DNA from: a virus
Taxonomy: Duplodnaviria; Heunggongvirae; Uroviricota; Caudoviricetes
Length of the DNA stretch: 64,000 nt
IMG/VR virus record: IMGVR_UViG_3300047548_001036
Coordinates: 1 to 64,000 of that record
Direction: 5' to 3' (one strand)
Below are positions 366 through 61,072 of the stretch, one piece after another. The position numbers were made by a program, and so were the translations under genes. The notes under the pieces were generated by a model. The model saw only the letters and a program-made list of their open reading frames with translations, ran no database searches and was not told the DNA's origin. Numbering within the stretch: position 1 is the first letter of the stretch; every line of letters begins with the position of its first letter.

Positions 366-536
366 AGGAATCTCCCTGGATATATAAAGTATATAGCATT
401 TTAGCAGGATTTCTGCTAAAAGTGCAAGTTTTCCTGTAGTTTATTTCAAGGTTTCATTGTGTCTGCAAGGTGCTGTATTTTTCTTGCCGGACAATAGAAA
501 AAATCTATTGAGCCTGGTGTTCAGCGGCATAGTCAA

Positions 537-650
537 AATACTCTGATGTACTCTGATGTACTCTGAGAGAGTCTGATGCGCTCTTAAAGGGTTTGGCGTA
601 ATTTTTCATACTCTGATGCACTCTTAGAGGGTTTGACGTAATTTTTTAAG
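537..650. repeat. direct repeats: TACTCTGATG x2-3 and two copies of a ~35-bp unit (TCTGATGCRCTCTTARAGGGTTTGRCGTAATTTTT)
   Basis: seen directly in non-coding leader. Confidence 0.6.
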
Positions 651-738
651 GGGTTTCCCACTGCCGCGTGTGGGGTTTCTAGAACGAGGGAAAAATTCTG
701 TGAACCCTATCTTCTGACAGTGCATATATGCTAGACGT

Positions 739-775
739 GTGCACGTATGCATGTGTGCATGTGTGCACGTTTATA
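739..775. repeat. alternating purine-pyrimidine tract (GTGCACGTATGCATGTGTGCATGTGTGCACG), Z-DNA prone
   Basis: seen directly. Confidence 0.5.
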
Positions 776-802
776 ATCAAGCGTCTGCGTTTACAGACAC
801 AT

Positions 803-1039
803 GCGCAGCGGACATGTTTGTTCGTTATGTGTTAATCACTGCGCATGCCCACACATGCGCAGCGGACACTTTTACTGTGCATGCGGGTATTCGTGTATAC
901 GTCTGTACTTGCGCAGCGGACATGATCGCTGTATGCATGTCCTTGTGTATGTGTACTCAGGTATGCGCAGCGGACAAATTTATTGAATTCTTTATTTTAT
1001 TCTTCTCATACGTGTATAATGCAACAAGCGCAGCGGACA
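803..1039. repeat. iteron-like array: 5 copies of GCGCAGCGGACA at 803, 857, 911, 965, 1028 (spacing 54, 54, 54, 63 bp)
   Basis: exact 12-mer repeated with helical-phase periodicity. The ORFs predicted here (739-1074, 801-986) are repeat artifacts. Confidence 0.7.
1011..1019 (+). promoter_or_regulatory. candidate extended -10 promoter (GTGTATAAT) overlapping the fifth iteron, upstream of 1071 ORF
   Basis: TG+TATAAT motif. Confidence 0.35.
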
Positions 1040-1070
1040 AATATAACATCGCTGCTTATATTATGGACCT

Positions 1071-1337
1071 ATGACTAAAACAAAAAAATCTACTATTCCA
1101 CCACCCCAACATCGAGATCTCCTGGGACATGTGATTGCGCTTGATGATTACGTGGTCTACCCCAGTCACAATACTCTGGTTGTGGGACGAGTTGCCAAGC
1201 TCAATGCAAAAATGATCGGTATCTCGGATGTTTCACGTCGAGCTTATCATGGTTACACCAACAAGTACCCTGATGATGTCACCGTGGTAGAGGGCGCCCG
1301 TGTCACCTGGTACTTGCTCAAACATGCTGGTGCTTGA
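1071..1337 (+). CDS. hypothetical protein (88 aa)
   Basis: ORF, first gene after leader. Confidence 0.45.
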   Translation: MTKTKKSTIPPPQHRDLLGHVIALDDYVVYPSHNTLVVGRVAKLNAKMIGISDVSRRAYHGYTNKYPDDVTVVEGARVTWYLLKHAGA

Positions 1338-1991: not shown

Positions 1992-4160
1992 ATGATTCTC
2001 AACAACGCACCCGTCGACCGGGCCCTGGTCAGTAATGTGGGCGCCGTGGGCGAATTCCGTATTCGCAACAGTGCCAAGGCCTTTAGCATTCTCAGCTCGG
2101 GTTTGTATGCCAACAAGATTCGCGCTATCATTCGAGAGCTCAGTACCAATGCCCTGGACAGTCATCGGGCTGCGGGTCGTGTGCATGTGCCCTATGATCT
2201 GCACTTGCCCACCAGCCTGGAACCCTGGTTTGCCATTCGTGACTATGGTACGGGCCTGGATGCTGCACAAGTACAGGACATCTATACCACTTACTTCGAA
2301 AGTACGAAAACGGAGAGCAATGACTACGTGGGCTGCTTGGGTCTGGGCAGCAAGAGTCCTTTTGCCTACACCGATAACTTTACTGTTACTGCCATCAAGG
2401 GCGGCGTGCGCACCATCTACACTGCCTTCATCAACGAGCAGGGTGTGCCCAGCATTGCGCAGATGATGACCGAAGCCAGTGATGAGCAGTCGGGTGTGGA
2501 GGTCAAGTTTGCCGTGGACAACGCTGCTGACTTCAATCGTTTCCGTCAGGAAGCACAGCATGTCTACCGACATTTTGCCCATCGCCCTGTGGTCAATGTT
2601 GATAACTTTGAGTTCATCAACGTCAAATACGAACAGCGTGACATTGTACCCGGTGTGCATCAGGTCACGCAGCATGGTGCCAGCCTGGCGGTCATGGGCA
2701 ACATTGCCTACCCCATTGATGTGCCCAACCCCGATCAGACTCTGGGTCATCTGGCTAACCTGCTGCGCTGTGGTCTGGAACTGCACTTTGACATTGGTCA
2801 ACTGGACTTCCAGGCCAGTCGTGAAGGTCTCAGCTATATTCCCAGCACCGTGGAAGCTATCCGCCAGCGACTGCAAGAGCTCAATCAGGCACTGTACCAG
2901 GTGCTCGAGCGCGAGGCAGCTGAATACACCAATGCTTGGGAACTGGCGCTCTGGCTGGACCGGCGCCTGGATACCCCGCTTTGGTCGGCTGCTGCCATCA
3001 AGTACGTGACCGACACCCAGTTTCCCCTGATCGACACCAGTCGTGGCAGCTATGACCGCATGAAGAAGTTTGAGTTCACTGAAGACGACTTGGCCTCCAA
3101 GTACAACATCAGCATCCAGGGCTTTACTAGGTATCGCGGTGATGTTGCTGCCAAGCACATGAAGCCGGATAACCGCAGTGTCAATCGCGTGGGTGGGGGC
3201 ATTGTGCGTGAGAACTACTGGCGCATTCGCATTGGCAACGACGTCTACTTTGCTGAAAATGACACCAAGATCGGGGCCATGGAGCGTGGTAAGTATCACT
3301 GGCGCGAGAACCAGAAGACTATGCCCACCACCAGCAACGTGGTCTACATTCTCAGTGCCGTGGACAAGACCCAGCCCATGAAGTTTGCCGAGTTTATGGC
3401 CGCACTGCATAACCCTCCGCGTCAGTGCAAGGTCAGCAGCTGGCTGCAGAAGCCGCGTGCCAACACCGGCGCTGCATTGGCTCGTGATGTCACCGTGCTC
3501 AAGCTCGAGGATGAAGACCGCGGCTATTGGAGTCGTCAACGTGGCAAGGTCTGGCGTGATGCTGGTCGGGCTGATGGGTTCCTTACTGATAAGACTTACT
3601 TCTATCTGCCGCTCAGTAGCTATGCTCTGGTCACCACACATGGCGAAGTTGACGCCAAGCACCTTTGCATTCAGGTTACTAGCTCGGGACTGTTTAACAT
3701 CAGTGATTTCTATGGGGTGCGCAAGGCCGATCTGGATTGGGTCAAGGCCCAGCCCAACTGGGTTAACCTGGAAGATCATCTGGCTGCGCAGTTTAAGAAA
3801 GGGTTCTCGACGAAAACGATTTCGGGTCTGGCTCTCAAAATCTATGAGAACAAGCATACCCGCATGAGCATCAGCGACCCCCTGCTGGACAAGATTGTGG
3901 ATGCCAAGAGCCCGTTTGTTCAGGCTGTGAGTACGTTTAAGGGTATCAGTTCCATTGAATACAATAGTCTGAGTATCGAGTGGTTGGCCCGTCGTTATGC
4001 GGGCAAGGATCCTCTCAAGCAGGCCCTGGCGCTGGCGGATCAGGTGGCTGACAGCTTTGCTAGGTATCCCATGATGCGCTTGGTTAATTCTGGGTACGGG
4101 CTCAACAACATTGAAGTCGTTGCGGAATATATTAATCTGGTGGATCGCACTACGGTATAA
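1992..4160 (+). CDS. rIIA: rIIA-like protein with N-terminal GHKL (Bergerat-fold) ATPase domain
   Basis: N-box IRELSTNALDS, G1 box IRDYGTGLD, G2-like GLGSKSPF. Size ~720 aa. AGGAA RBS before ATG 1992; the first 123 nt of the ORF overlap the previous gene. Confidence 0.6.
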   Translation: MILNNAPVDRALVSNVGAVGEFRIRNSAKAFSILSSGLYANKIRAIIRELSTNALDSHRAAGRVHVPYDLHLPTSLEPWFAIRDYGTGLDAAQVQDIYTTYFESTKTESNDYVGCLGLGSKSPFAYTDNFTVTAIKGGVRTIYTAFINEQGVPSIAQMMTEASDEQSGVEVKFAVDNAADFNRFRQEAQHVYRHFAHRPVVNVDNFEFINVKYEQRDIVPGVHQVTQHGASLAVMGNIAYPIDVPNPDQTLGHLANLLRCGLELHFDIGQLDFQASREGLSYIPSTVEAIRQRLQELNQALYQVLEREAAEYTNAWELALWLDRRLDTPLWSAAAIKYVTDTQFPLIDTSRGSYDRMKKFEFTEDDLASKYNISIQGFTRYRGDVAAKHMKPDNRSVNRVGGGIVRENYWRIRIGNDVYFAENDTKIGAMERGKYHWRENQKTMPTTSNVVYILSAVDKTQPMKFAEFMAALHNPPRQCKVSSWLQKPRANTGAALARDVTVLKLEDEDRGYWSRQRGKVWRDAGRADGFLTDKTYFYLPLSSYALVTTHGEVDAKHLCIQVTSSGLFNISDFYGVRKADLDWVKAQPNWVNLEDHLAAQFKKGFSTKTISGLALKIYENKHTRMSISDPLLDKIVDAKSPFVQAVSTFKGISSIEYNSLSIEWLARRYAGKDPLKQALALADQVADSFARYPMMRLVNSGYGLNNIEVVAEYINLVDRTTV

Positions 4161-12202: not shown

Positions 12203-12571
12203 ATGAAGCGTGGTGATCAAGTTAGCGTGTGCTACGATGGCAAGTGGGGTCGTCGAGTAGAAGGCACTGTCCTTGCTACTGACCGTGGAGGACGTATCTT
12301 GGTTCGATTTGTTCCTTGGGCCAGTGACCTGGAAAATCCAGTGGATCATTGGTTCCATGTTCGTCGTCGCAGTGCTCGTTATGGTGGGCCGCGCAAGTAT
12401 TTCGCAGGCTTTGTTCCGGTGCAGGTCAGCCTCATGCGCAATCTGTTTGGCACGTATGGAGATTGGTATGAAGTCAAGTCACTTTCGTACAATGTTGATA
12501 ACACCAAAACAGGTCGTTGGTTTCGTAAGCAACTGTACAAGATGAACACCGAAAATAAAACATCCACTTGA
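12203..12571 (+). CDS. hypothetical protein (122 aa)
   Basis: ORF after promoter cassette. Confidence 0.5.
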   Translation: MKRGDQVSVCYDGKWGRRVEGTVLATDRGGRILVRFVPWASDLENPVDHWFHVRRRSARYGGPRKYFAGFVPVQVSLMRNLFGTYGDWYEVKSLSYNVDNTKTGRWFRKQLYKMNTENKTST

Positions 12572-27336: not shown

Positions 27337-27672
27337 ATGAACTCAGGCTGGCAATCCAGGAATGGAAGAAACCCAATGGTTAGTTACAAAGACTACTTTG
27401 AAAAGAACAGATACAAACCCAAATACTTCCTTGGAGATCGGGTTATCGGCAAATGGAATAAAATTCCCTTTGTGGGCACCGTGGGAAACGATAGTCTGGT
27501 TTCCGAAGAAGAAGGTCCAAAGATTTCTGTTATGCTGGACTTGCCTATCAAGTATAAAGGTGAAATCAAGACAATTATATTTTGCAAGCACAGAGAAGTG
27601 AGGAAATTTCCAGAATGGACAGAGAAATCATTGGATACCAAGAAACCCAAGAGGGTTACAAGGAAATCCTAA
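27337..27672 (+). CDS. hypothetical Lys-rich protein (alternatives: 27362-27601 or a 48-aa membrane ORF 27236-27382)
   Basis: competing overlapping ORFs, none with strong RBS. Confidence 0.25.
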   Translation: MNSGWQSRNGRNPMVSYKDYFEKNRYKPKYFLGDRVIGKWNKIPFVGTVGNDSLVSEEEGPKISVMLDLPIKYKGEIKTIIFCKHREVRKFPEWTEKSLDTKKPKRVTRKS

Positions 27673-27830
27673 AACGCCGCAGCGGAGGAATTTATACACA
27701 GGCGCTTATTACCTGCACCGACTGCAAAACTATGATCAGTAGTTCAGGAGGTCCCAGATACAATAGCGTCTGCGTTAACTGCTATGGCATACGCAAGCTC
27801 GCAGGATTTGTTGATGGTAAAAAGGTCTAG
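27615..27830 (+). CDS. small CxxC-n27-CxxC zinc-ribbon protein
   Basis: GAGGAAA RBS before ATG 27615; ORF opens at 27582. Confidence 0.4.
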   Translation: MDREIIGYQETQEGYKEILKRRSGGIYTQALITCTDCKTMISSSGGPRYNSVCVNCYGIRKLAGFVDGKKV

Positions 27831-31760: not shown

Positions 31761-32534
31761 TTAAACGGGTAGTGCGTCAGAATCGGTAGACGGTAGTCTA
31801 CCCTGTACATTATTGGTTAACGGAAATCGTTTGGAAAACAATGCAAGCTGTGTTCTGTTTTTGCAACCATATTTTTTAAGAACTTTACCAACATGTAACT
31901 TAACTGTACTTTCACTGATATCCAACATCTTTGCAATGACTTTATTAGTTGCTCCTCGGTCACATATTAGTTTTAAAATTTGTTCTTCGCGAGGAGTTAG
32001 ATCAATGGTGTTTTTCTTACATACTATGGATTTTTTAGGCTTGAGCAAATCCAATACATGTTTAGGTATACTGTAATCTCCTGAAATGGTGCGCTTTAGG
32101 TTTTCTTTAACTAACTCATATCCCCATTTTTCGGTTAACAGCGTACCTAAAAAGATATCAGGCATTAGGATTGCTTGTCGAATTAACTTAGGATCGGTAA
32201 TATCTCCGACTAACAAGCAAATTTTAGTTTCTCGTCTAACAGGTTTTCCGATACCGTTCCTGTAAACCGTGCATTTTATTAGCGTAGATAAAGTATTGAT
32301 CATGTCAAATGCGTCCGCTTCGGCATGCGCATCAACTAATCGAGAAAGTGGCAGTGTTATAACGTCTATCCTAAGGGTCGGATCGCTTAACATTGGGAAT
32401 AGTTCAGAAATTGCATCAACTTCAATGAAGTCTATCCCTAACTCTCGTTCAATGGTTGCTAGCGCCCTCTGCTGAATAGTGTTAGAAACAGGCGGCTGCA
32501 TATATGTAAATACTAACCGTTTTTCGTTGCTCAT
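31761..32534 (-). CDS. LuxR/GerE-family HTH transcriptional regulator with atypical receiver-like N-terminal domain
   Basis: C-terminal LTPREEQILKLICDRGATNKVIAKMLDISESTVKLHVGKVLKKYGCKNRTQLA; GGGAGA RBS. Confidence 0.6.
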   Translation of the reverse strand: MSNEKRLVFTYMQPPVSNTIQQRALATIERELGIDFIEVDAISELFPMLSDPTLRIDVITLPLSRLVDAHAEADAFDMINTLSTLIKCTVYRNGIGKPVRRETKICLLVGDITDPKLIRQAILMPDIFLGTLLTEKWGYELVKENLKRTISGDYSIPKHVLDLLKPKKSIVCKKNTIDLTPREEQILKLICDRGATNKVIAKMLDISESTVKLHVGKVLKKYGCKNRTQLALFSKRFPLTNNVQGRLPSTDSDALPV

Positions 32535-53752: not shown

Positions 53753-55012
53753 TTATCTCCTGCTAAAATGATAGTCGCCGTCAGGACCATTATCGCAAAA
53801 CGGTCCTGACAGGAAATTAAATCCTAGGGATAGCACATATCTAATTACTTCATCCCTTAACGGTGCGCCTTTATTGTACTCTACCGCTTGCAACTCGAGT
53901 ATTAAATCAGTGCAATGCCTTAGACATTCTGTTGCACCCATTAAGACATCAAGTTCGGCCCCTTGTACATCCATTTTAATTAAATTTGGCATGGGCAGAC
54001 CTTTTTGTTTGACCACAGTATCAAGTGTCATGGCAGTAACAGTTCTTTTATGTTTTTCATTAAACAGCTCTTTAGCAGCCGGACTTAATTCTACGTTTTC
54101 TCTGTAATAACTGTTTCCTCCCGGATGTTCAGTATTTTGATAAAACTCTAGTGTTCTTCCATCATAGTTACTGAGCACTCCAATCGCGTAGTCAAGTCCC
54201 TTTTCCTTATATAAGGACTCGACTTCTGGCATAGCCTCAAATGCTATAAATTTAGCATCGGGCCATATCGCACTAGCTTCATTGGTCCAATGTAATACAC
54301 ATGCACCTATGTCGTAAATTACATTGGGCGTTACTTGATGACTCAAGGCTTTTAAATAATCCACATGAGTCTGAGGTAACAGGCGCCGACTGCCTAATTC
54401 CTTAAGGTGTTGTTGAACAGTGGGTGTTGGATTGTCATCAACTACAAACACGCTACTTCCATGATGCCCGCAATGTATGCTGGTATCTGCAAATATCTTA
54501 TATCCTTTTTCTTTTGCACGCAAGCAAAAATAAGTATCTTCGCTAACAGTATTTGCATGGTCTATGGCGGACTTATAAACAAACTGAGGATACCCAATAT
54601 CTCTAATCACTTGGCTTTTAACCAACACACATCCAAATCCACAGCCATCAACTTCAACCAGACCTTTTCCTTTAATACTATTATAAGATATGTTAATTCC
54701 ATTATTATAAAGTTCAAGAATGTGCTGCCCGGGTTTCCTTTGAATATACAGGCCTGAAACTACGTCTTTGTCATGTGCCAATAATTTCTTTAACGTATCG
54801 GGCTTAAATGATATGTCACTATCTACACTGAACAAATAATCATACTTTTCAGCCCAATGTGCAATTAAATTTCTAATCTGATCAACTTGATCCGAAACAA
54901 AAGGTTGGAATGTTAAATTATGTCCGGCCGGAACTTCTAAGTCATATATGCTTTTAAATGTTTCTGGTTCAACGTACTTATCAGTTGGGACTGCGATTAA
55001 AATTGTTTTCAT
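53753..55012 (-). CDS. bifunctional glycosyltransferase (DxD, GT2-like) / FkbM-family methyltransferase
   Basis: N-terminal domain with DSD; C-terminal VIYDIGACVLHW...MDVQGAELDVL (FkbM-like). Confidence 0.55.
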   Translation of the reverse strand: MKTILIAVPTDKYVEPETFKSIYDLEVPAGHNLTFQPFVSDQVDQIRNLIAHWAEKYDYLFSVDSDISFKPDTLKKLLAHDKDVVSGLYIQRKPGQHILELYNNGINISYNSIKGKGLVEVDGCGFGCVLVKSQVIRDIGYPQFVYKSAIDHANTVSEDTYFCLRAKEKGYKIFADTSIHCGHHGSSVFVVDDNPTPTVQQHLKELGSRRLLPQTHVDYLKALSHQVTPNVIYDIGACVLHWTNEASAIWPDAKFIAFEAMPEVESLYKEKGLDYAIGVLSNYDGRTLEFYQNTEHPGGNSYYRENVELSPAAKELFNEKHKRTVTAMTLDTVVKQKGLPMPNLIKMDVQGAELDVLMGATECLRHCTDLILELQAVEYNKGAPLRDEVIRYVLSLGFNFLSGPFCDNGPDGDYHFSRR

Positions 55013-55070
55013 GGTATATTTGCAATAAAAATTAACTTTTGATAAATATATTTATCAAAAGGAGATTCTA

Positions 55071-56087
55071 ATGGATTATATTCCCTATACATATCTCATA
55101 GGATGGTCAAAATTAAACAAATGGTATTACGGAGTTGAGTACGGAATTAAAAAAATTCCTTGTGCAAATCCAAAAAACTTATGGACCACATACTTTACTT
55201 CTTCGAACATAGTTTCTCACTTTCGAAAAACCCACGGAGAACCAGATATTATTCAGGTAAGAAAACTTTTTTCTAAAGGGCCTCTAGAAGAAAGGATGGA
55301 AATGTCTATAAATTGGGAGAAGAAAGTTTTATCGAAAATTAACATTGGAGATGAAAAGTGGATTAATGGAAGAATTGGGGGCAATATTTGCCCTTCTGCT
55401 AATAAAAAAATTGCTAGACTTCGATACGGAGTCGATAATGTTTTTCAAGCAGAAGAAATAAAGAAAAAAATAAAAGAAAGAAATTTAAAAAAATTTGGAG
55501 TTGAACACCCGTCATACTCGACAGTTTTATTAGACAAGAAAAAGAAAAATAATATTGAAAAATACGGAATCACTTGTAATTTGAGTTTTTCTTCTGTGAG
55601 AGAGAAAGCAAAAGAATCGCTTCGAACAGAAGAGGTTAAAAAGAAAAGAAAAGAAACTATTAAAAGTAGATACGGGGTCGAACACCTAACACAATCCAAC
55701 GACATTAAAGCGCGTGTACTTGCAACTCGTAGCATTTTATCAGAAAGACCTAATGTTAAACTTATAAAAGAATATCAAAGAGTTTTTAATATAACATTGA
55801 CTAGCGGTTGGTATCAAGGATCAGATGAAAAATTAATCTTAATACTACAAGAAATACATTCCATGTATGGAGTATACTCTTATAGTGAGTTGTCTGAAAT
55901 TGCGTTACCTAAAAAATATTCATCTTCTATAAAAGAATTACAAGAGAGACCTATTGTGAAAAAAATTAAACAATATAAAGATACATACGGTAGAAAAATT
56001 AAAATAGGTCGCTCATGGGATAGAAAATCTGAAGAGTATCTTATTGAAGTTTTAAGTATGCTGGAAAAAACGTACGGACTACTTTAA
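55071..56087 (+). CDS. GIY-YIG homing endonuclease-like protein with K-rich repeated (K/R)YGVEHP modules
   Basis: YTYLIGWSKLNKWYYGVEYG ... SHFRKTHGE ... EERMEMSINWEKK ... NGRIGG; four YGV(E/D)(H/N) repeats; very AT-rich. Confidence 0.5.
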   Translation: MDYIPYTYLIGWSKLNKWYYGVEYGIKKIPCANPKNLWTTYFTSSNIVSHFRKTHGEPDIIQVRKLFSKGPLEERMEMSINWEKKVLSKINIGDEKWINGRIGGNICPSANKKIARLRYGVDNVFQAEEIKKKIKERNLKKFGVEHPSYSTVLLDKKKKNNIEKYGITCNLSFSSVREKAKESLRTEEVKKKRKETIKSRYGVEHLTQSNDIKARVLATRSILSERPNVKLIKEYQRVFNITLTSGWYQGSDEKLILILQEIHSMYGVYSYSELSEIALPKKYSSSIKELQERPIVKKIKQYKDTYGRKIKIGRSWDRKSEEYLIEVLSMLEKTYGLL

Positions 56088-59000
56088 AATTCTGTCTTTA
56101 TACGTGGCTAAATAAGAAACGCTAGCACCTGCAGTTTTAGCTCGTTCTACAAAATCTAGTTCTTCAATTTTTTCAGATTCTAAAGGTTGAAAGTGTGGGT
56201 AATTTAAAAGATTAACAAAAACTGTTTGTTTAATAAACAAACAAGACATGTTATCTAATAATACTATATCTTTATTCTTAGCTAACATATCTATTAAGAG
56301 AGATTTATCTAATATTGTATCTCTTTTTAAAAGAAGCGTATAATCATAATGTTGAGCCCAATGCGCAATTAAGTTTCTAATCTGAGACCTAGAATATCCG
56401 TAGAAGTACTGAAAGTGTGTTTTATATCCTTCAGGAACTTCTAAGTCGTAAACACTTTTAAAAGTTTCAGGTTCAATGTACTTATTTGTTGGGATTGCAA
56501 TTAGTATTTGCTTTTCTCTATTGGTATGAGATGTAGTAGTTTTTTGAGTGTGAACCACGGGCGCGTCCTTGTTGATGTTTTCCGAGAGTTTTGCAGACCA
56601 ATCTTGATAAAATGGAAGTTCTTTTTCGTAATATCCGCCGGTAATAGATTTATCACTTGAGGTTTGCGCCATTGGAGATTCAAATCTGGTATTATAAATC
56701 ATAATAGGTGCAGCCTTTCTAGTCACAGAGCAATGAAAGATAAAGTCATCACCAAAGTAAATTTCCAACTCTGGAATAATAGGAACCCAGTCGGACTTGT
56801 GCATGAACATTAGTTGTCCAAAACAATGGATAATATCTCCAGGTTTCCATTCAATGAAGTCTATGGAAAAGTCTGTGCTTGCTGGCTGATTGAAATGTGC
56901 TTCTCCAGTTATTAACCCGTGAACAGGAGAACCTGGCTGTATCCTAGATTCCAACTTAGAGAATACTGCAGGATCCACCCAAATATCATCGTTAGCAATG
57001 CATAACTTGTCGTATGTTGACAGAGCGACACCGAGATTCCATGCAGGATTAACTTTAATGTTTGTTGTCTGGTTAATCATTCGTATTTTAGTATTCTGCA
57101 AAATATCCCAGTCTGGTGTTTTTGCAACATCGTTATTGATAAGAATGATTTCCCCAACGAGATCCTGTCCAATATAACTTCTTAGAGCTTTGTCCATTAC
57201 CGGCAATGCTCTCCACATAGTGGGAATAATTACTGAAAATTTATTTTTCAGAGTCTTTTGTTCAAGTATGGCATTGGCATTCCGTGTTTGTTCAACTCCA
57301 TTAACTTTATAGTCGTTTAATGGGTTGATGTCATTGTAATTGTAAACCACATCTTGAACCACTTTAACTTTATCAGGATCAGCTTTCTCAATTAGTGAAT
57401 AGAAAACCGCACCATCACCTCCGGCTTTGTACCAATTTCCATATTGATCTTTAAATACAGATTCATCGACCCCATCAAGCAATGATGCTTTAAATGTACG
57501 TAGATGCGTATAAGGCATATTCCAGTTAAACTTATGGGTTCTGTAAGATTTATTAGCTTTAACAGATTTTGGATAGGGTTGCGCTACTAATGGAATTTTA
57601 TCTGCCTGGCTCCAACAACTTCCGTAGCTGAACTCAGTGGTTCCGTCATACAAATTATTGTAGTAATGGAATATTTGATTGCTATTAACTAGGCTATCAT
57701 CACCATCTAACAGCATAATAATATCTTCAGGGTTGCAATATTTTTTAATTGTGGTTATTTGATTGTAAACTGCTCCGCGATTTTCTGTATTTTTAAGTAC
57801 TTGTATCTTATCTCGAAAATGTAAGGGAACAGACTCAATTGCAGTTTCAAATGTAGAATCTGTACTGGCATCATCAATGATAAACATCTCCCAGTTGTCA
57901 TAATCTTGTATTACCACGCTGGCAATACATTTGGCTATATACCTCTCAGCATTATATACTGGTGTTATGATCTTAATTGCTTTCTCTTTGGTGCGTGGGA
58001 TATACCTTTCTTCTTTATTAGAGAATCGTCGACCAAATACTTGTTGCACTCGATTATTAATTTTGGATACAGCTCGATACTCGTGAACTGGTAAGTATTG
58101 TCCCAGTATACGATACAGGTGCTGTTTCCATTGCAGGGCAACGGTATCCCAGGTGGATATGTCTTTTACTATGTTACAATAGTATTGCTTCTGTTGAAGC
58201 AAATATCTATCAGAACTGGCACGCAGAGTTAAATCGACAAACTTGTCAACTTGTGCAGAAGCATTGATTCCGGGGAATAACCCGTTTGGTTCTATTGCAT
58301 AATCTATTAGATAGCAGGCTTGGGTGACTGCAGTTTCTTCTAATGCACCAAACCGAGTGGTAATTAACGGAGTATTGTAAATTAAGGATTCTAAAGAACT
58401 GATGCCAAATGTTTCCGGAAATGCACCAGGGTAAATTGTAAAACTAGCATTTGAAAGTATTTCTGCTATTTCACTTTGCTTGATTACACCAGTAAACTCT
58501 ATATCTAAGTCTCTGTATTTAGGATCATCAACCATGGAACGCCAAGTTTTTTCTTGTTCGTCTGGTTCGGCGTTTTCTCTAAAACGGTAGTATCCGCCGA
58601 TAACTTTCAGCTTTGCTTGCGGGATGTGTTCTTTGACTTTTGGCCAAATAGAATTTACCAAAGGTAGCATGCCCTTGGTAACAGACGCATTATAAACATA
58701 TAGATAAGGATCTTTTGCAGCAATATCCACCTCGTCTTTGTAGTTGACTATACCATTGCGAGTCATGAAAACATTATTTTTAAGAACTTCAAACATTCTA
58801 CGTTTTCCGTGATCACAATTAGTAACATAACTTGTGTGGAAGTCGCTCAGCGTAAACAGTTCGTTAATGTCTTTATTGACCACTAGGTCTTCTAGCAGGT
58901 GATCTCCCTTACAAAAGGTATCATGCATCCAGACTGCTCTATACTTTGCAGATGTTTTTATTTTTTGGTATCGCTGTGGATTATATCCTGCAAATTCAGA

Positions 59001-59294
59001 ATATAGTTGTGGTGTCAGGAACGGGATCACAGTTCGAGAACTGATAACAACATCATAGACAAAACTATTAGGACTGTCTAACTCTGTATGATCTCTATAG
59101 GTAACTCCGTCATAGACACCCGGGACTGCTTCAGAATCGATGCAGTTATTAAACACGGTCACCTTAAACCCCAGTTTTGCTAATTCTTTACTCATTAGGA
59201 TAACAGCAGATTCAGACCCACCTAATCCTCTTTTTGATAGGGTTGTGCCATCATAGGTTAACCCGATTACATCAATAATTGCTATGGAAATCAT
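56079..59294 (-). CDS. multidomain glycosyltransferase (GT4/GT1-like + two GT2-like modules + degenerate copy of the neighbouring GT N-domain), 1071 aa
   Basis: FPETFGISSLESLIYNTPLITTRFG (GT1/4); IITPVYNAERYIAKCIASVVIQDYDNWEMFIIDDASTD (GT2); FSVIIPTMWRALP...; C-term LIAIPTNKYIEPETFKSVYDLEVPEGY. Confidence 0.65.
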   Translation of the reverse strand: MISIAIIDVIGLTYDGTTLSKRGLGGSESAVILMSKELAKLGFKVTVFNNCIDSEAVPGVYDGVTYRDHTELDSPNSFVYDVVISSRTVIPFLTPQLYSEFAGYNPQRYQKIKTSAKYRAVWMHDTFCKGDHLLEDLVVNKDINELFTLSDFHTSYVTNCDHGKRRMFEVLKNNVFMTRNGIVNYKDEVDIAAKDPYLYVYNASVTKGMLPLVNSIWPKVKEHIPQAKLKVIGGYYRFRENAEPDEQEKTWRSMVDDPKYRDLDIEFTGVIKQSEIAEILSNASFTIYPGAFPETFGISSLESLIYNTPLITTRFGALEETAVTQACYLIDYAIEPNGLFPGINASAQVDKFVDLTLRASSDRYLLQQKQYYCNIVKDISTWDTVALQWKQHLYRILGQYLPVHEYRAVSKINNRVQQVFGRRFSNKEERYIPRTKEKAIKIITPVYNAERYIAKCIASVVIQDYDNWEMFIIDDASTDSTFETAIESVPLHFRDKIQVLKNTENRGAVYNQITTIKKYCNPEDIIMLLDGDDSLVNSNQIFHYYNNLYDGTTEFSYGSCWSQADKIPLVAQPYPKSVKANKSYRTHKFNWNMPYTHLRTFKASLLDGVDESVFKDQYGNWYKAGGDGAVFYSLIEKADPDKVKVVQDVVYNYNDINPLNDYKVNGVEQTRNANAILEQKTLKNKFSVIIPTMWRALPVMDKALRSYIGQDLVGEIILINNDVAKTPDWDILQNTKIRMINQTTNIKVNPAWNLGVALSTYDKLCIANDDIWVDPAVFSKLESRIQPGSPVHGLITGEAHFNQPASTDFSIDFIEWKPGDIIHCFGQLMFMHKSDWVPIIPELEIYFGDDFIFHCSVTRKAAPIMIYNTRFESPMAQTSSDKSITGGYYEKELPFYQDWSAKLSENINKDAPVVHTQKTTTSHTNREKQILIAIPTNKYIEPETFKSVYDLEVPEGYKTHFQYFYGYSRSQIRNLIAHWAQHYDYTLLLKRDTILDKSLLIDMLAKNKDIVLLDNMSCLFIKQTVFVNLLNYPHFQPLESEKIEELDFVERAKTAGASVSYLATYKDRILK

Positions 59295-59449
59295 TTTATA
59301 CTTTTATAATTAACTATATATGCTTGCTCATAGTCTTACGACTAAAAACCCGTAATTCATTCTAAATGGAACGGATAAATAGATTATACGTGAATATTAC
59401 ACGAAAAACAAGTACTCTTAGCCTATATAGGCAATTATGAGGGGGCCAT

Positions 59450-61072
59450 ATGGCAAATAAAATTCAAATTAAACGTAGTGCTGTTCCCGGTAAAGCGCCT
59501 GCCATAGGTGATATTGACCTGGGCGAACTAGCCATTAACACATACGACGGAAAACTCTTTCTTAAGAAAGAGTTTGTTAACGACCAAGGAAATCAAGAAC
59601 AATCTATCATACAGTTTTTCGGTAAAGTTTATATCGAAAATACACTGTATGTTCAAAAAAATGGAAAAAATTCCAACGATGGAAAAAGTTGGGATACTGC
59701 TGTAGCCACACTTGAAAAGGCATTAGAACTTGCATGGGACAGAACGAGCCCAACATTAATTGACATTGCGCCAGGAACATACGAATCTGAAGGTAATCTT
59801 GATATGCCTGACCAATGTGCAATTCGAGCAGTGCATCGAACAGTAATTATTAAACCTAAAACTGGATTTGAAGTTAATAATGTTATACGTATGGGATCCG
59901 GATGCTTTATAGAAGGACTTCTGTTCGAGGATTGGAAACTTGATAATTTAACCGCCCCTACAAAAGGATTTGCAGTATCGTTTAGGCCCGGAGCGGTCAT
60001 AACTCGAGCCCCGTATGCTCACAAAATTGCAGTCAGAACAACTCCTTATTGGAGTACAGTGGCGCCTCCTCTAGATCGTAACAATGCAAATCCACTGGTG
60101 GGTATCGGTGGCGGTGTAATTCTGGCAGACGGTGCGGTGTGTTCTCCATATTCCGTATACCCAAACATAATGACTTGGGGTGCTACTCCTGTAAGTCATA
60201 ACGGAATCGGGTACTGTGCAAAAAACGGTGCATTAATTAATGCAGTTAACGCGGTTTCTATGTGGGCACATAAGCATTTCTTAGCCCTATCTGGTGGGCA
60301 AATTATTTTATCAAGTTGCTCAACACAATTCGGCGACTACACAATGGTTGCGTCTGGATTTCGACAAATTATAATACCCACAGAGGTTACAATTGCCCTT
60401 AGTGTACAAACTGCTGATGCTACTGCAATCACTAATGCAAAAACTACAATCATTGATAATTTATGGAATGCTCTAGTAGCACAAGGTTATACTACTGGAT
60501 GGAACGCCGAGGATGAAACTTTTACCCGTCGAGATGCTGGGTCTTTTTTACAGTCAATGAGCTGGGTACTGGAAAGCGCCAACGAAAAACCAATGCTAGA
60601 TTTTGCAAAAGGATTATATAAAGTAGATGGTACTGCCGTATTCTCATCTGATAAACTTAGTTCATTTACATTCTCATTTAACTACATGAGAGATCAAATT
60701 AATGCAATCGTTAGTTCACCTTCGCAGACTATTATCACTGCATTAACCGCAGCATTAAATACCACTATTTCTAATCCAGCCAAAAGAGCCGAACCATCGA
60801 CTATTACTGCAATAGGACATACTTGGACTGCTATACTAGCAGGAGTTGCGTTGACAAAAATTCCACCGGCAAGGAACCAAGCCACTATTGCAGAATCAAT
60901 ACTAGAGCTTAATCAGGGTGTCGTTATTGCATCAGGACAAGACGACCAAGGATCTGCATTGTTTATCGGAGGATTAGAAATCAACGCCGATACCGGAGAA
61001 CTAACAGGTCCTCCTTTTGATCAAGCAGTTAATCGAATCGCAACACGAGCAGCTATTGCAAGGAGTTTTTAA
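59450..61072 (+). CDS. tailspike/tail fiber protein with probable right-handed beta-helix domain
   Basis: N-terminal MANKIQIKRSAVPGKAPAIGDIDLGELAINTYDGKLFLK; GTYESEGNL... beta-helix-like region. Confidence 0.55.
   Translation: MANKIQIKRSAVPGKAPAIGDIDLGELAINTYDGKLFLKKEFVNDQGNQEQSIIQFFGKVYIENTLYVQKNGKNSNDGKSWDTAVATLEKALELAWDRTSPTLIDIAPGTYESEGNLDMPDQCAIRAVHRTVIIKPKTGFEVNNVIRMGSGCFIEGLLFEDWKLDNLTAPTKGFAVSFRPGAVITRAPYAHKIAVRTTPYWSTVAPPLDRNNANPLVGIGGGVILADGAVCSPYSVYPNIMTWGATPVSHNGIGYCAKNGALINAVNAVSMWAHKHFLALSGGQIILSSCSTQFGDYTMVASGFRQIIIPTEVTIALSVQTADATAITNAKTTIIDNLWNALVAQGYTTGWNAEDETFTRRDAGSFLQSMSWVLESANEKPMLDFAKGLYKVDGTAVFSSDKLSSFTFSFNYMRDQINAIVSSPSQTIITALTAALNTTISNPAKRAEPSTITAIGHTWTAILAGVALTKIPPARNQATIAESILELNQGVVIASGQDDQGSALFIGGLEINADTGELTGPPFDQAVNRIATRAAIARSF

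Follow-up and report, generated by a model that had tools for sequence, protein, structure and literature searches.

A Conserved Array of Oriented CAGCGG Boxes in the Divergent Early Region of an Uncultured Virulent Phage: A Candidate Operator or Replication Site

Results

Genomic Context of the Locus

The DNA analyzed here (referred to as the window, 64,000 nucleotides long) belongs to an uncultured virulent phage, whose genes include rIIA, rIIB, baseplate, baseplate-wedge, and tail-fibre genes, as well as a gene encoding a sigma-70 region-4-like protein. The window is 100% identical to the 105.6-kb JGI contig L008 and to the Logan contig L007, the latter reaching 3.4 kb further left. The non-coding stretch 366-1070 represents a divergent intergenic region, separating a leftward gene of 75 aa, beyond which at least nine further small genes run leftward, from the rightward gene block. 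The features of the region are listed in Table 1. The first rightward gene has no clear Shine-Dalgarno sequence, and the structure model of its 88-aa product was unusable (pLDDT 36). In the initial annotation, the repeat array described below was said to be followed by a rIIA-like gene; rIIA is indeed located to the right of the array (1992-4160), but two genes (1071-1337 and 1391-1933) intervene.

Some other features were disclosed in the same genome and in its relatives. Many small early ORFs located between about 5650 and 18000 share a KFAELIV(K/R)EC ... HFG(V/I) motif and form a large paralogous family of putative proteins of about 70-95 aa. A 257-aa protein encoded on the minus strand (31761-32534) has a sigma-factor match in PHROGs, and its homologue in the related contig L139 has GerE and Sigma70_r4 Pfam matches; such similarities would be compatible with either a phage sigma factor or a regulator of the LuxR type. 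The low-GC block at 54000-60000 (0.34-0.38), which harbors glycosyltransferase- and methyltransferase-like genes together with an HNH-type endonuclease-like gene (55071-56087), might have been acquired as an island. The related contig L013 carries a tRNA (12450-12524) with anticodon CTA, of the amber-suppressor type and labelled tRNA-Pyl by ARAGORN; the window contains no tRNA.

Table 1. Position of the features of the intergenic region and of its flanking genes (window coordinates).
Feature	Position	Strand	Remarks
Leftward gene, 75 aa	138..365	-	Conserved; directed away from the array; tentative candidate for the box binder
Extended -10 promoter TGCTAAAAT of the 75-aa gene	398..406	-	Recognized from sequence; relatives carry TGCTATATA at the equivalent place
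17-nt anchor GGCATAGTCAAAATACT	526..542	+	Consensus GGCATAGTyAAAATACT; conserved in almost all lineages
TACTCTGATG-type short repeats	538..625	+	Spacing of 10, 20 or 40 bp; conserved in L006
Perfect purine/pyrimidine alternation, 36 nt	735..770		Comparable tract before the boxes in all relatives
Box 1	803..814	+	Exact GCGCAGCGGACA; unchanged in L006
Box 2	857..868	+	Exact GCGCAGCGGACA; unchanged in L006; flank CACACATGCGCAGCGGACA in common with box 1
Box 3	911..922	+	Exact GCGCAGCGGACA; unchanged in L006, though shifted by a 37-bp insertion
Box 4	965..976	+	Exact GCGCAGCGGACA; about -62 to -51 relative to the inferred transcription start
AT-rich tract between boxes 4 and 5	977..1012		Nearly invariant in L006; all relatives have an AT-rich tract after the boxes
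TATAAT -10 hexamer, first rightward promoter	1015..1020	+	Conserved in L006; transcription start inferred at about 1027
Box 5	1028..1039	+	Exact GCGCAGCGGACA; about +1 to +12 of the promoter
First rightward gene, 88 aa	1071..1337	+	PHROG 2251 (E 1e-7); L006 homologue 78% identical

Copies, Spacing, and Helical Phase of the Boxes

An exact search of the 64-kb window revealed five copies of the 12-mer GCGCAGCGGACA, all on the plus strand and with start-to-start spacings of 54, 54, 54, and 63 bp from box 1 to box 5, in full agreement with the initial annotation. The same search, extended to the entire window as the annotation had proposed, retrieved no sixth exact copy; allowing up to two mismatches, only 4 extra matches were obtained against the 3.0 expected by chance. 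The array is far beyond chance occurrence, and, within the window, the copies are confined to it, rather than being frequent at random spacing. The boxes represent the cores of diverged 54-bp units detected by a repeat finder, whose flanks are 60-80% identical to those of the first copy, and one extra 5' base (a T before the box) is common to four copies. The 54-bp regularity looks like a remnant of the duplication of a 54-bp unit.

The same annotation had placed the copies on one DNA face on the basis of a helical periodicity, and this part of the proposal is not supported. A spacing of 54 bp corresponds to 5.14 turns; with a helical repeat of 10.5 bp, boxes 1 and 4 would therefore be rotated by about 150 degrees relative to each other, i.e., they would be located on almost opposite faces. 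When the 18 intervals between neighbouring boxes in the different lineages were considered, 9/18 measured 53-54 bp and were spread over five lineages, the remaining ones (63 (twice), 68, 72 (twice), 81, 82, 91, 100, and 150 bp) falling at all helical phases; as an example, in the relatives, intervals of 91, 68, 100, 72, and 82 bp correspond to 8.67, 6.48, 9.52, 6.86, and 7.81 turns, respectively. The phasing is neither one of integral turns in the window nor kept among the relatives. Since 53-54 bp recurs in five lineages, about 54 bp may nevertheless represent a preferred distance.

Other identities of the repeated sequence were considered and discarded. A CRISPR array was rejected on the basis of the length of the conserved unit (12-19 nt, CRISPR repeats being at least 23 nt long) and of the homology of the spacers between the window and the related contig L006. 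The heptamer GCAGCGG occurs 8 times on the plus strand and once on the minus strand outside the array; it was not accepted as a Chi-like orientation signal, since this bias is explained by the G excess of the coding strand. The GCAGCGG at 27679 was also rejected as an extra box, being embedded in a conserved zinc-ribbon-like ORF (27582-27830) that overlaps, in another frame, the 3' end of the gene 27337-27672. In L013, the zinc-ribbon ORF (12253-12459) contains an exact copy of the box of that contig, CTAGCAGCGGGGCC.

Conservation of the Boxes and Lack of Coding Capacity

The sequence of the region was compared with that of L006, a 4.6-kb ENA contig harboring a homologue of the 88-aa protein (Table 1). 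Over the five boxes, 60/60 bases are identical, while the first three spacers are 69% identical and contain, in addition, 37 indel columns (the 37-bp insertion); at the substitution rate of the spacers, the identity of all the box bases would have a probability of about 2e-10. The spacer between boxes 4 and 5, belonging to the 63-bp unit and containing the AT-rich tract and the TATAAT hexamer, is identical at 45/51 positions, and the two contigs do not differ over the leftmost 42 bases of the intergenic region. This comparison indicates that the boxes are conserved above the surrounding non-coding DNA and that they are under strong purifying selection. Since they are unchanged in relatives while the intervening DNA drifts, it is most likely that a DNA-binding protein docks on them.

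A quite different explanation is that the array is a protein-coding repeat. The ORF 739-1074 is open throughout, reads CAAD five times, and overlaps the next start codon by ATGA; moreover, all four spacings in the window are multiples of three, and the JGI record calls a 107-aa gene over the array (window 751-1074, L008 932-1255). However, the 91-bp spacing existing in L006 puts boxes 1-2 in a different frame from boxes 3-5, no frame is conserved across the box arrays of eight lineages, and those of five of them (L009, L011, L013, L137, and L138) contain stops in all three frames. The 60 box bases show zero synonymous differences in spite of strongly diverged flanks. The openness of the ORF can be explained on the basis of the strict purine/pyrimidine alternation, which cannot encode stop codons, the ORF being a by-product of this alternation; the comparison with the relatives shows that the 107-aa gene is a false gene call. 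The possibility that the region might turn out to be coding in related phages, which had been envisaged in the initial annotation, is not borne out by the array reading frame, which is not conserved, and a coding repeat can be regarded as extremely improbable.

Promoters and Placement of the Boxes

The TATAAT hexamer is the sole good -10 hexamer of the region, and box 5 starts 7 nt after its end in the window and in L006 alike. A -10 element next to the last box had been pointed out previously, and it is actually present, although the sequence TGTATAAT is located at 1013-1020 and not at 1011-1019. The other promoters of the phage are of the TGCTATAAT / TATAAT type and are all devoid of boxes; hence, the box is not a core promoter element. 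A sixth box (GTGCAGCGGACA) was found outside the window, at 1465-1476 of L007, i.e., 2.76 kb left of the array. Two leftward genes are separated there by a 48-bp gap, and the box lies within it, 3 nt away from the start codon (ATG) of a GP88-family gene and at about +13 to +24 of a leftward TGCTATAAT promoter, the start of which is inferred from the sequence. It shares the absolute orientation of the array and is hence antisense to its gene, which favours recognition as DNA over recognition as RNA. In L139, an extra box lies between the first and the second rightward genes, in the context TATAAT-ATC-box-TACT-ATG.

A -10-like hexamer is located no more than 10 nt upstream of 9/30 boxes, against a background of 21%, so that the majority of the boxes do not sit at a promoter. 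The distance of the last box from the main promoter also changes with the lineage: it lies at +1 in both the window and L006, at about -40 in L009, and at about -100 in L139. Two further arrangements were examined and rejected. The box as a -35 element (CGGACA-17-TATATT) is inconsistent across copies and lineages, and the mild enrichment of -10-like hexamers downstream of the boxes (P about 0.01 in 2/3 windows tested) was judged not robust.

Other Modules of the Intergenic Region

The anchor GGCATAGTCAAAATACT is found with at most small changes in L006, L011, L013, L139, L143, and L147, and in a variant form in L137 and L138; its sequence does not suggest any obvious promoter. In one of the 40-bp repeats adjoining it, an octamer identical to the core of the lambda nut boxA (CGCTCTTA, 577-584) was noticed; it is not conserved in L006, is probably a chance match, and was discarded. 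The purine/pyrimidine alternation fraction of the segment 700-1030 is 0.70, which represents the window maximum (5 SD over the mean of 0.51), and the alternating tract may make the DNA flexible or prone to adopt Z-DNA or cruciform structures. Among the 40-bp stretches of the intergenic region, the least stable one is 978-1018 (dG -42.8 versus a window mean of -53.4), which belongs to the top 0.5% of the window, such instability not being unique within it. The AT-rich tract might act as an upstream element of the promoter, as a site of easy melting, or as both.

It had been suggested that the GC skew be checked for a switch at this point. Its sign does change (-0.03 left of the array and +0.07 to +0.10 right of it), but the coding strand switches here too, and the skew tracks the coding strand window-wide; therefore, an origin cannot be located by means of it. 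In single-stranded form, the array has a higher folding stability than shuffled sequence (z -3.7), an excess that is expected of an alternating, self-complementary sequence. The Rfam scan of positions 1-2000 retrieved no family and just two chance-level miRNA matches (E 0.3-0.7), and the hairpin at box 5 is neither significant (z -1.4) nor conserved in L006.

Organization of the Locus in the Phage Clade

The contigs of the relatives were fetched via homologues of rIIA and of the leftward gene, and their analysis revealed one layout common to ten lineages of an uncultured clade, whose rIIA sequences are 55-89% identical where comparison exists. From left to right, this layout consists of a conserved leftward gene of 67-75 aa with an extended -10 promoter; the 17-nt anchor; a lineage-specific module made up of short phased repeats or clustered DnaA boxes; an alternating purine/pyrimidine tract; two to five tandem boxes, all oriented rightward and with a CAGCGG core; an AT-rich tract; and a sigma-70 promoter with the first rightward gene. 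In most of the more distant lineages, an extra box precedes the second gene.

The lineage-specific module shows a variety of forms. In the window and L006, it consists of TACTCTGATG repeats with a 10-bp phase, in L009 of four 20-bp tandem repeats (L009 1-80), and in L137 and L138 of AGGTTCCCAAT repeats (L137 about 575-640). In L011, L013, L143, and L147, it contains four perfect DnaA boxes (TTATNCACA), often in pairs 3 nt apart and located 70-150 bp left of the CAGCGG boxes (L011 416-510; L013 528-612); no DnaA box is present in the window or in L006. As for the boxes themselves, the sequence is GCGCAGCGGACA in the window and L006, GCGCAGCGGGGG in L009 (rIIA 89% identical), and (G/A)CAGCGGGGCCT in the more distant lineages (rIIA 55-61% identical where known), i.e., the 3' half varies by lineage and the CAGCGG core is constant.

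Outside these lineages, the arrangement was not retrieved. The loci of the more distant rIIA relatives L004, L005, and L140 contain neither the boxes nor the small leftward gene, L004 and L005 being IMG/VR relatives reached via rIIA (49-56% identical). Megablast and blastn searches of GenBank phages with the region and with the first 6 kb gave zero matches, the best GenBank rIIA matches being at most 44% identical. A scan of IMG/VR for box pairs gave three matches, all of them rejected as coding repeats of unrelated high-GC phages, and the sole match of the anchor scan in the same database was an unrelated coding region. In the metagenome collection, the anchor pattern gave zero matches, and the more than 120 matches to a box pair at fixed 54-bp spacing, in GC-rich contigs, were discarded as chance ones; this clade is absent from the scanned collection.

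Candidate Binding Proteins

The 75-aa protein accompanies the boxes in every lineage whose contig covers that side and belongs to a small family (about 31 clusters at 50% identity). It might tentatively be put forward as the box binder; however, the co-occurrence is confounded by synteny and is, therefore, a lead rather than evidence. No DNA-binding domain was recognized in the early proteins by Pfam (55 early ORFs) or PHROGs, and no Rep, DnaA-like, or helicase-loader domain was found by PHROGs and Pfam in the neighbouring and early ORFs. It is possible that a replication initiator exists among the small uncharacterized proteins.

Discussion

Possible Role of the Box Array

The initial annotation interpreted the repeats as iterons bound by a replication initiator or as sites of a cooperatively binding regulator. 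The helical argument used in its favour is not supported; what remains is that the boxes are non-coding, constrained, oriented, and region-specific, and that they flank an AT-rich tract and a sigma-70 promoter. Being conserved, oriented, non-coding, and promoter-placed, they have the properties expected of the sites of an initiator or of a cooperative regulator. On sequence grounds, it is most likely that they control the first early promoter, the start of replication, or both.

Among the possible roles, the one that we tentatively favour, with less than even confidence, is that of an operator-like array for a phage protein acting at the immediate-early rightward promoter and at one or more leftward promoters. 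Protein binding, repression, cooperativity, the start sites, and the identity of the binder are what we infer in the following scheme. The boxes would be oriented sites for one sequence-specific DNA-binding protein of the clade, with box 5 over the inferred start, box 4 about 55 bp upstream of it, and boxes 1-3 as auxiliary sites. The protein bound to the upstream boxes would raise the occupancy of box 5 by protein-protein contacts spanning the flexible alternating purine/pyrimidine spacers, and, once accumulated, it would shut down or tune the transcription of the first rightward genes. The identical protein would act at the sixth box, downstream of the second early promoter, 2.8 kb to the left. 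An operator role is consistent with the confinement of the five exact copies to this region in the 64 kb, with the retention of all the box bases against diverging spacers, and with the lack of a conserved frame in the arrays of eight lineages. Moreover, 2-5 tandem CAGCGG boxes keep a constant orientation and place in ten lineages, box 5 adjoins TATAAT in the window and in L006, the sixth box lies between a TGCTATAAT promoter and an ATG, relatives have an extra box between the first and second rightward genes, and the other promoters of the phage are free of boxes. A precedent for such operators exists in D29 Gp36 (PMC12266134).

Some of the observations fit an operator less well. The proportion of boxes close to a -10-like hexamer is not significantly above the background, the last box is differently placed relative to the main promoter in different lineages, and Pfam and PHROGs find no DNA-binding domain in the early proteins. 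In addition, an untranslated, repeat-rich region of 700 bp, with DnaA clusters in four relatives, is origin-like and appears excessive for a simple operator. The main rival is, in fact, that the boxes are iterons, to which an initiator (accompanied in some lineages by host DnaA) would bind and cause the AT-rich tract to melt, and that transcription from the early promoter may activate or prime initiation. The order of the modules (phased repeats or DnaA boxes, direct repeats, AT-rich tract, promoter) matches this proposal, as do the several direct repeats having one orientation in a non-coding region, the four perfect DnaA boxes of L011, L013, L143, and L147, the low stability of 978-1018, the folding of the single-stranded array, and the location at a divergent-transcription point, as at T4 oriE, oriF, and oriG (PMC3016281). 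However, single boxes occur elsewhere (before the second genes of the relatives and at the leftward promoter 2.8 kb away), no replication-initiator gene is recognized nearby by PHROGs or Pfam, a spacing of at least 54 bp far exceeds the 20-24 bp of known iterons, the change of the GC-skew sign coincides with that of the coding strand, and the phage of the window has no DnaA box. We consider an iteron origin a serious possibility, albeit on balance an unlikely one. The two roles are not mutually exclusive and may coexist, since the initiator of an iteron plasmid also represses its own promoter.

Other explanations deserve much less credit. The 54-bp units might be present or former promoter modules, i.e., tandem early promoters like T7 A1-A3, in which the box would provide the start site or the initially transcribed stretch. 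The units clearly derive from duplication, the flanks of the copies being similar to each other, and the last box follows TATAAT in the window and in L006; furthermore, TGCTATCAT precedes box 3 of L006, and boxes of several relatives lie 1-4 nt after TATACT, TAAAAT, or TATAAT. Nevertheless, no acceptable -10 hexamer accompanies boxes 1-4 of the window, the enrichment of -10-like hexamers (9/30 versus 21%) is not significant, and the sixth box is antisense to its gene; decayed promoters with perfect boxes would, moreover, imply selection on the box itself. Tandem promoters are improbable. A slightly poorer case can be made for a DNA-handling site comparable to the T5 injection-stop, which would hold or pause the entering genome, or represent a terminal-repeat boundary or a packaging mark. 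T5 repeat region 3 combines DnaA boxes with nine oriented repeats in an untranslated block, DnaA-box pairs 3 nt apart exist in this clade as well, and the small-gene block left of the array is transcribed leftward. On the other hand, no genome ends or terminal repeats were seen, L007 extending uninterrupted across the point where the JGI contig begins, the phage, which carries rIIA, rIIB, and baseplate-wedge genes, is not T5-like, and the T5 model is itself unproven. The idea that the boxes act as RNA, i.e., as a motif of a leader or of a non-coding transcript binding or titrating an RNA-binding protein, is very improbable. All the copies of the array are in the sense of rightward transcription, and box 5 would fall in the 5' leader of the 1071 gene, which has no clear Shine-Dalgarno sequence. 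Yet no conserved promoter exists upstream of box 1 (the TATAAT at 772-777 is missing from L006), no Rfam match was obtained, the box-5 hairpin is not significant and is not kept in L006, the sixth box is antisense to its transcript, and other lineages do not retain the GGA of the window box.

Returning to the operator-like array, a broader interpretation, which we regard as doubtful, is that the 700-bp region is a modular hub for replication and early control, of a type so far undescribed, in which the CAGCGG array would be bound by a new small beta-sheet protein encoded next door and accompanied by an exchangeable DnaA/phased-repeat module. Were this true, related phages would switch between the host initiator and a factor of their own. 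To our knowledge, the replication origins and the immediate-early control of large virulent non-model phages are almost unknown, and the T4 oriE iterons and the T5 injection-stop repeats are still unexplained. The clade described here offers a comparative case, with an invariant oriented box in fast-evolving DNA beside a module alternating between DnaA boxes and phage repeats. If the binder were found, it would define an early-transcription or replication switch in an uncultured phage group, and it might possess a new small DNA-binding fold and provide a test bed for swapping host-dependent and self-encoded modules of initiation or regulation.

Comparison with Known Systems

The array fits none of the known systems compared exactly. 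The L5 gp71 "stoperators" and the P1 C1 operators are arrays of small phage repressors with asymmetric or direct-repeat sites. In phage D29, Gp36 is a small repressor that binds the GC-rich direct repeats AGGCGGC-N13-AGGCGGC (PMC12266134). The operator arrays of these three phages share with the boxes the presence of short, GC-rich, non-palindromic sites having one orientation and located at, or just downstream of, early promoters in a lytic-cycle genome; their binder is small and phage-encoded, as is presumed for the boxes. The number and spacing of the sites are different, since here five boxes lie at 54-63 bp plus one distant, while D29 has two copies 20 bp apart and L5 dozens of dispersed ones. 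Moreover, unlike in those arrays, no MerR or other helix-turn-helix protein was found here, and binding is predicted.

The iteron-type origins of P1 oriR, pSC101, RK2, and R6K gamma contain iterons of 17-22 bp at a spacing of about 22 bp. Similarly to them, the array is composed of oriented direct repeats adjoining an AT-rich tract, with DnaA boxes nearby in four relatives, and one repeat overlaps a promoter, as in the autoregulation of initiators. It differs from them in having a core of 10-12 bp repeated at 53-150 bp, in the lack of any Rep-like gene among those found, and in the presence of single boxes at other promoters as well.

As far as phage origins are concerned, transcription has been proposed to activate or prime initiation at T4 oriE, oriF, and oriG. 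The T4 oriE "iterons" (PMC3016281) are, like the array, close to an early-type promoter and to a divergent-transcription point. However, they are 12-nt GTTGAAGGTAAT repeats with a 24-bp spacing located inside the beta-helix coding sequence of gene 5, while the array is non-coding and has a 54-bp spacing; they are a different thing.

T5 repeat region 3, connected with the injection-stop (bioRxiv 10.1101/866236; record AY587007), contains nine oriented 15-bp TGTGCAAATCCGACA repeats at irregular spacing in a 1.2-kb untranslated block adjoined by the leftward pre-early genes, and its DnaA boxes are arranged in pairs 3 nt apart, as in the relatives of this clade. In both cases, a large conserved untranslated block separates leftward small genes from the next block. 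T5 is, however, an unrelated phage type, the phage of the window has no DnaA boxes, and neither terminal repeats nor nick sites are known in the present region; the T5 repeat resembles the box at 9/14 bases, which is probably due to chance. T5 repeat region 3 represents an architectural parallel of the region described here, and D29 Gp36 a functional precedent.
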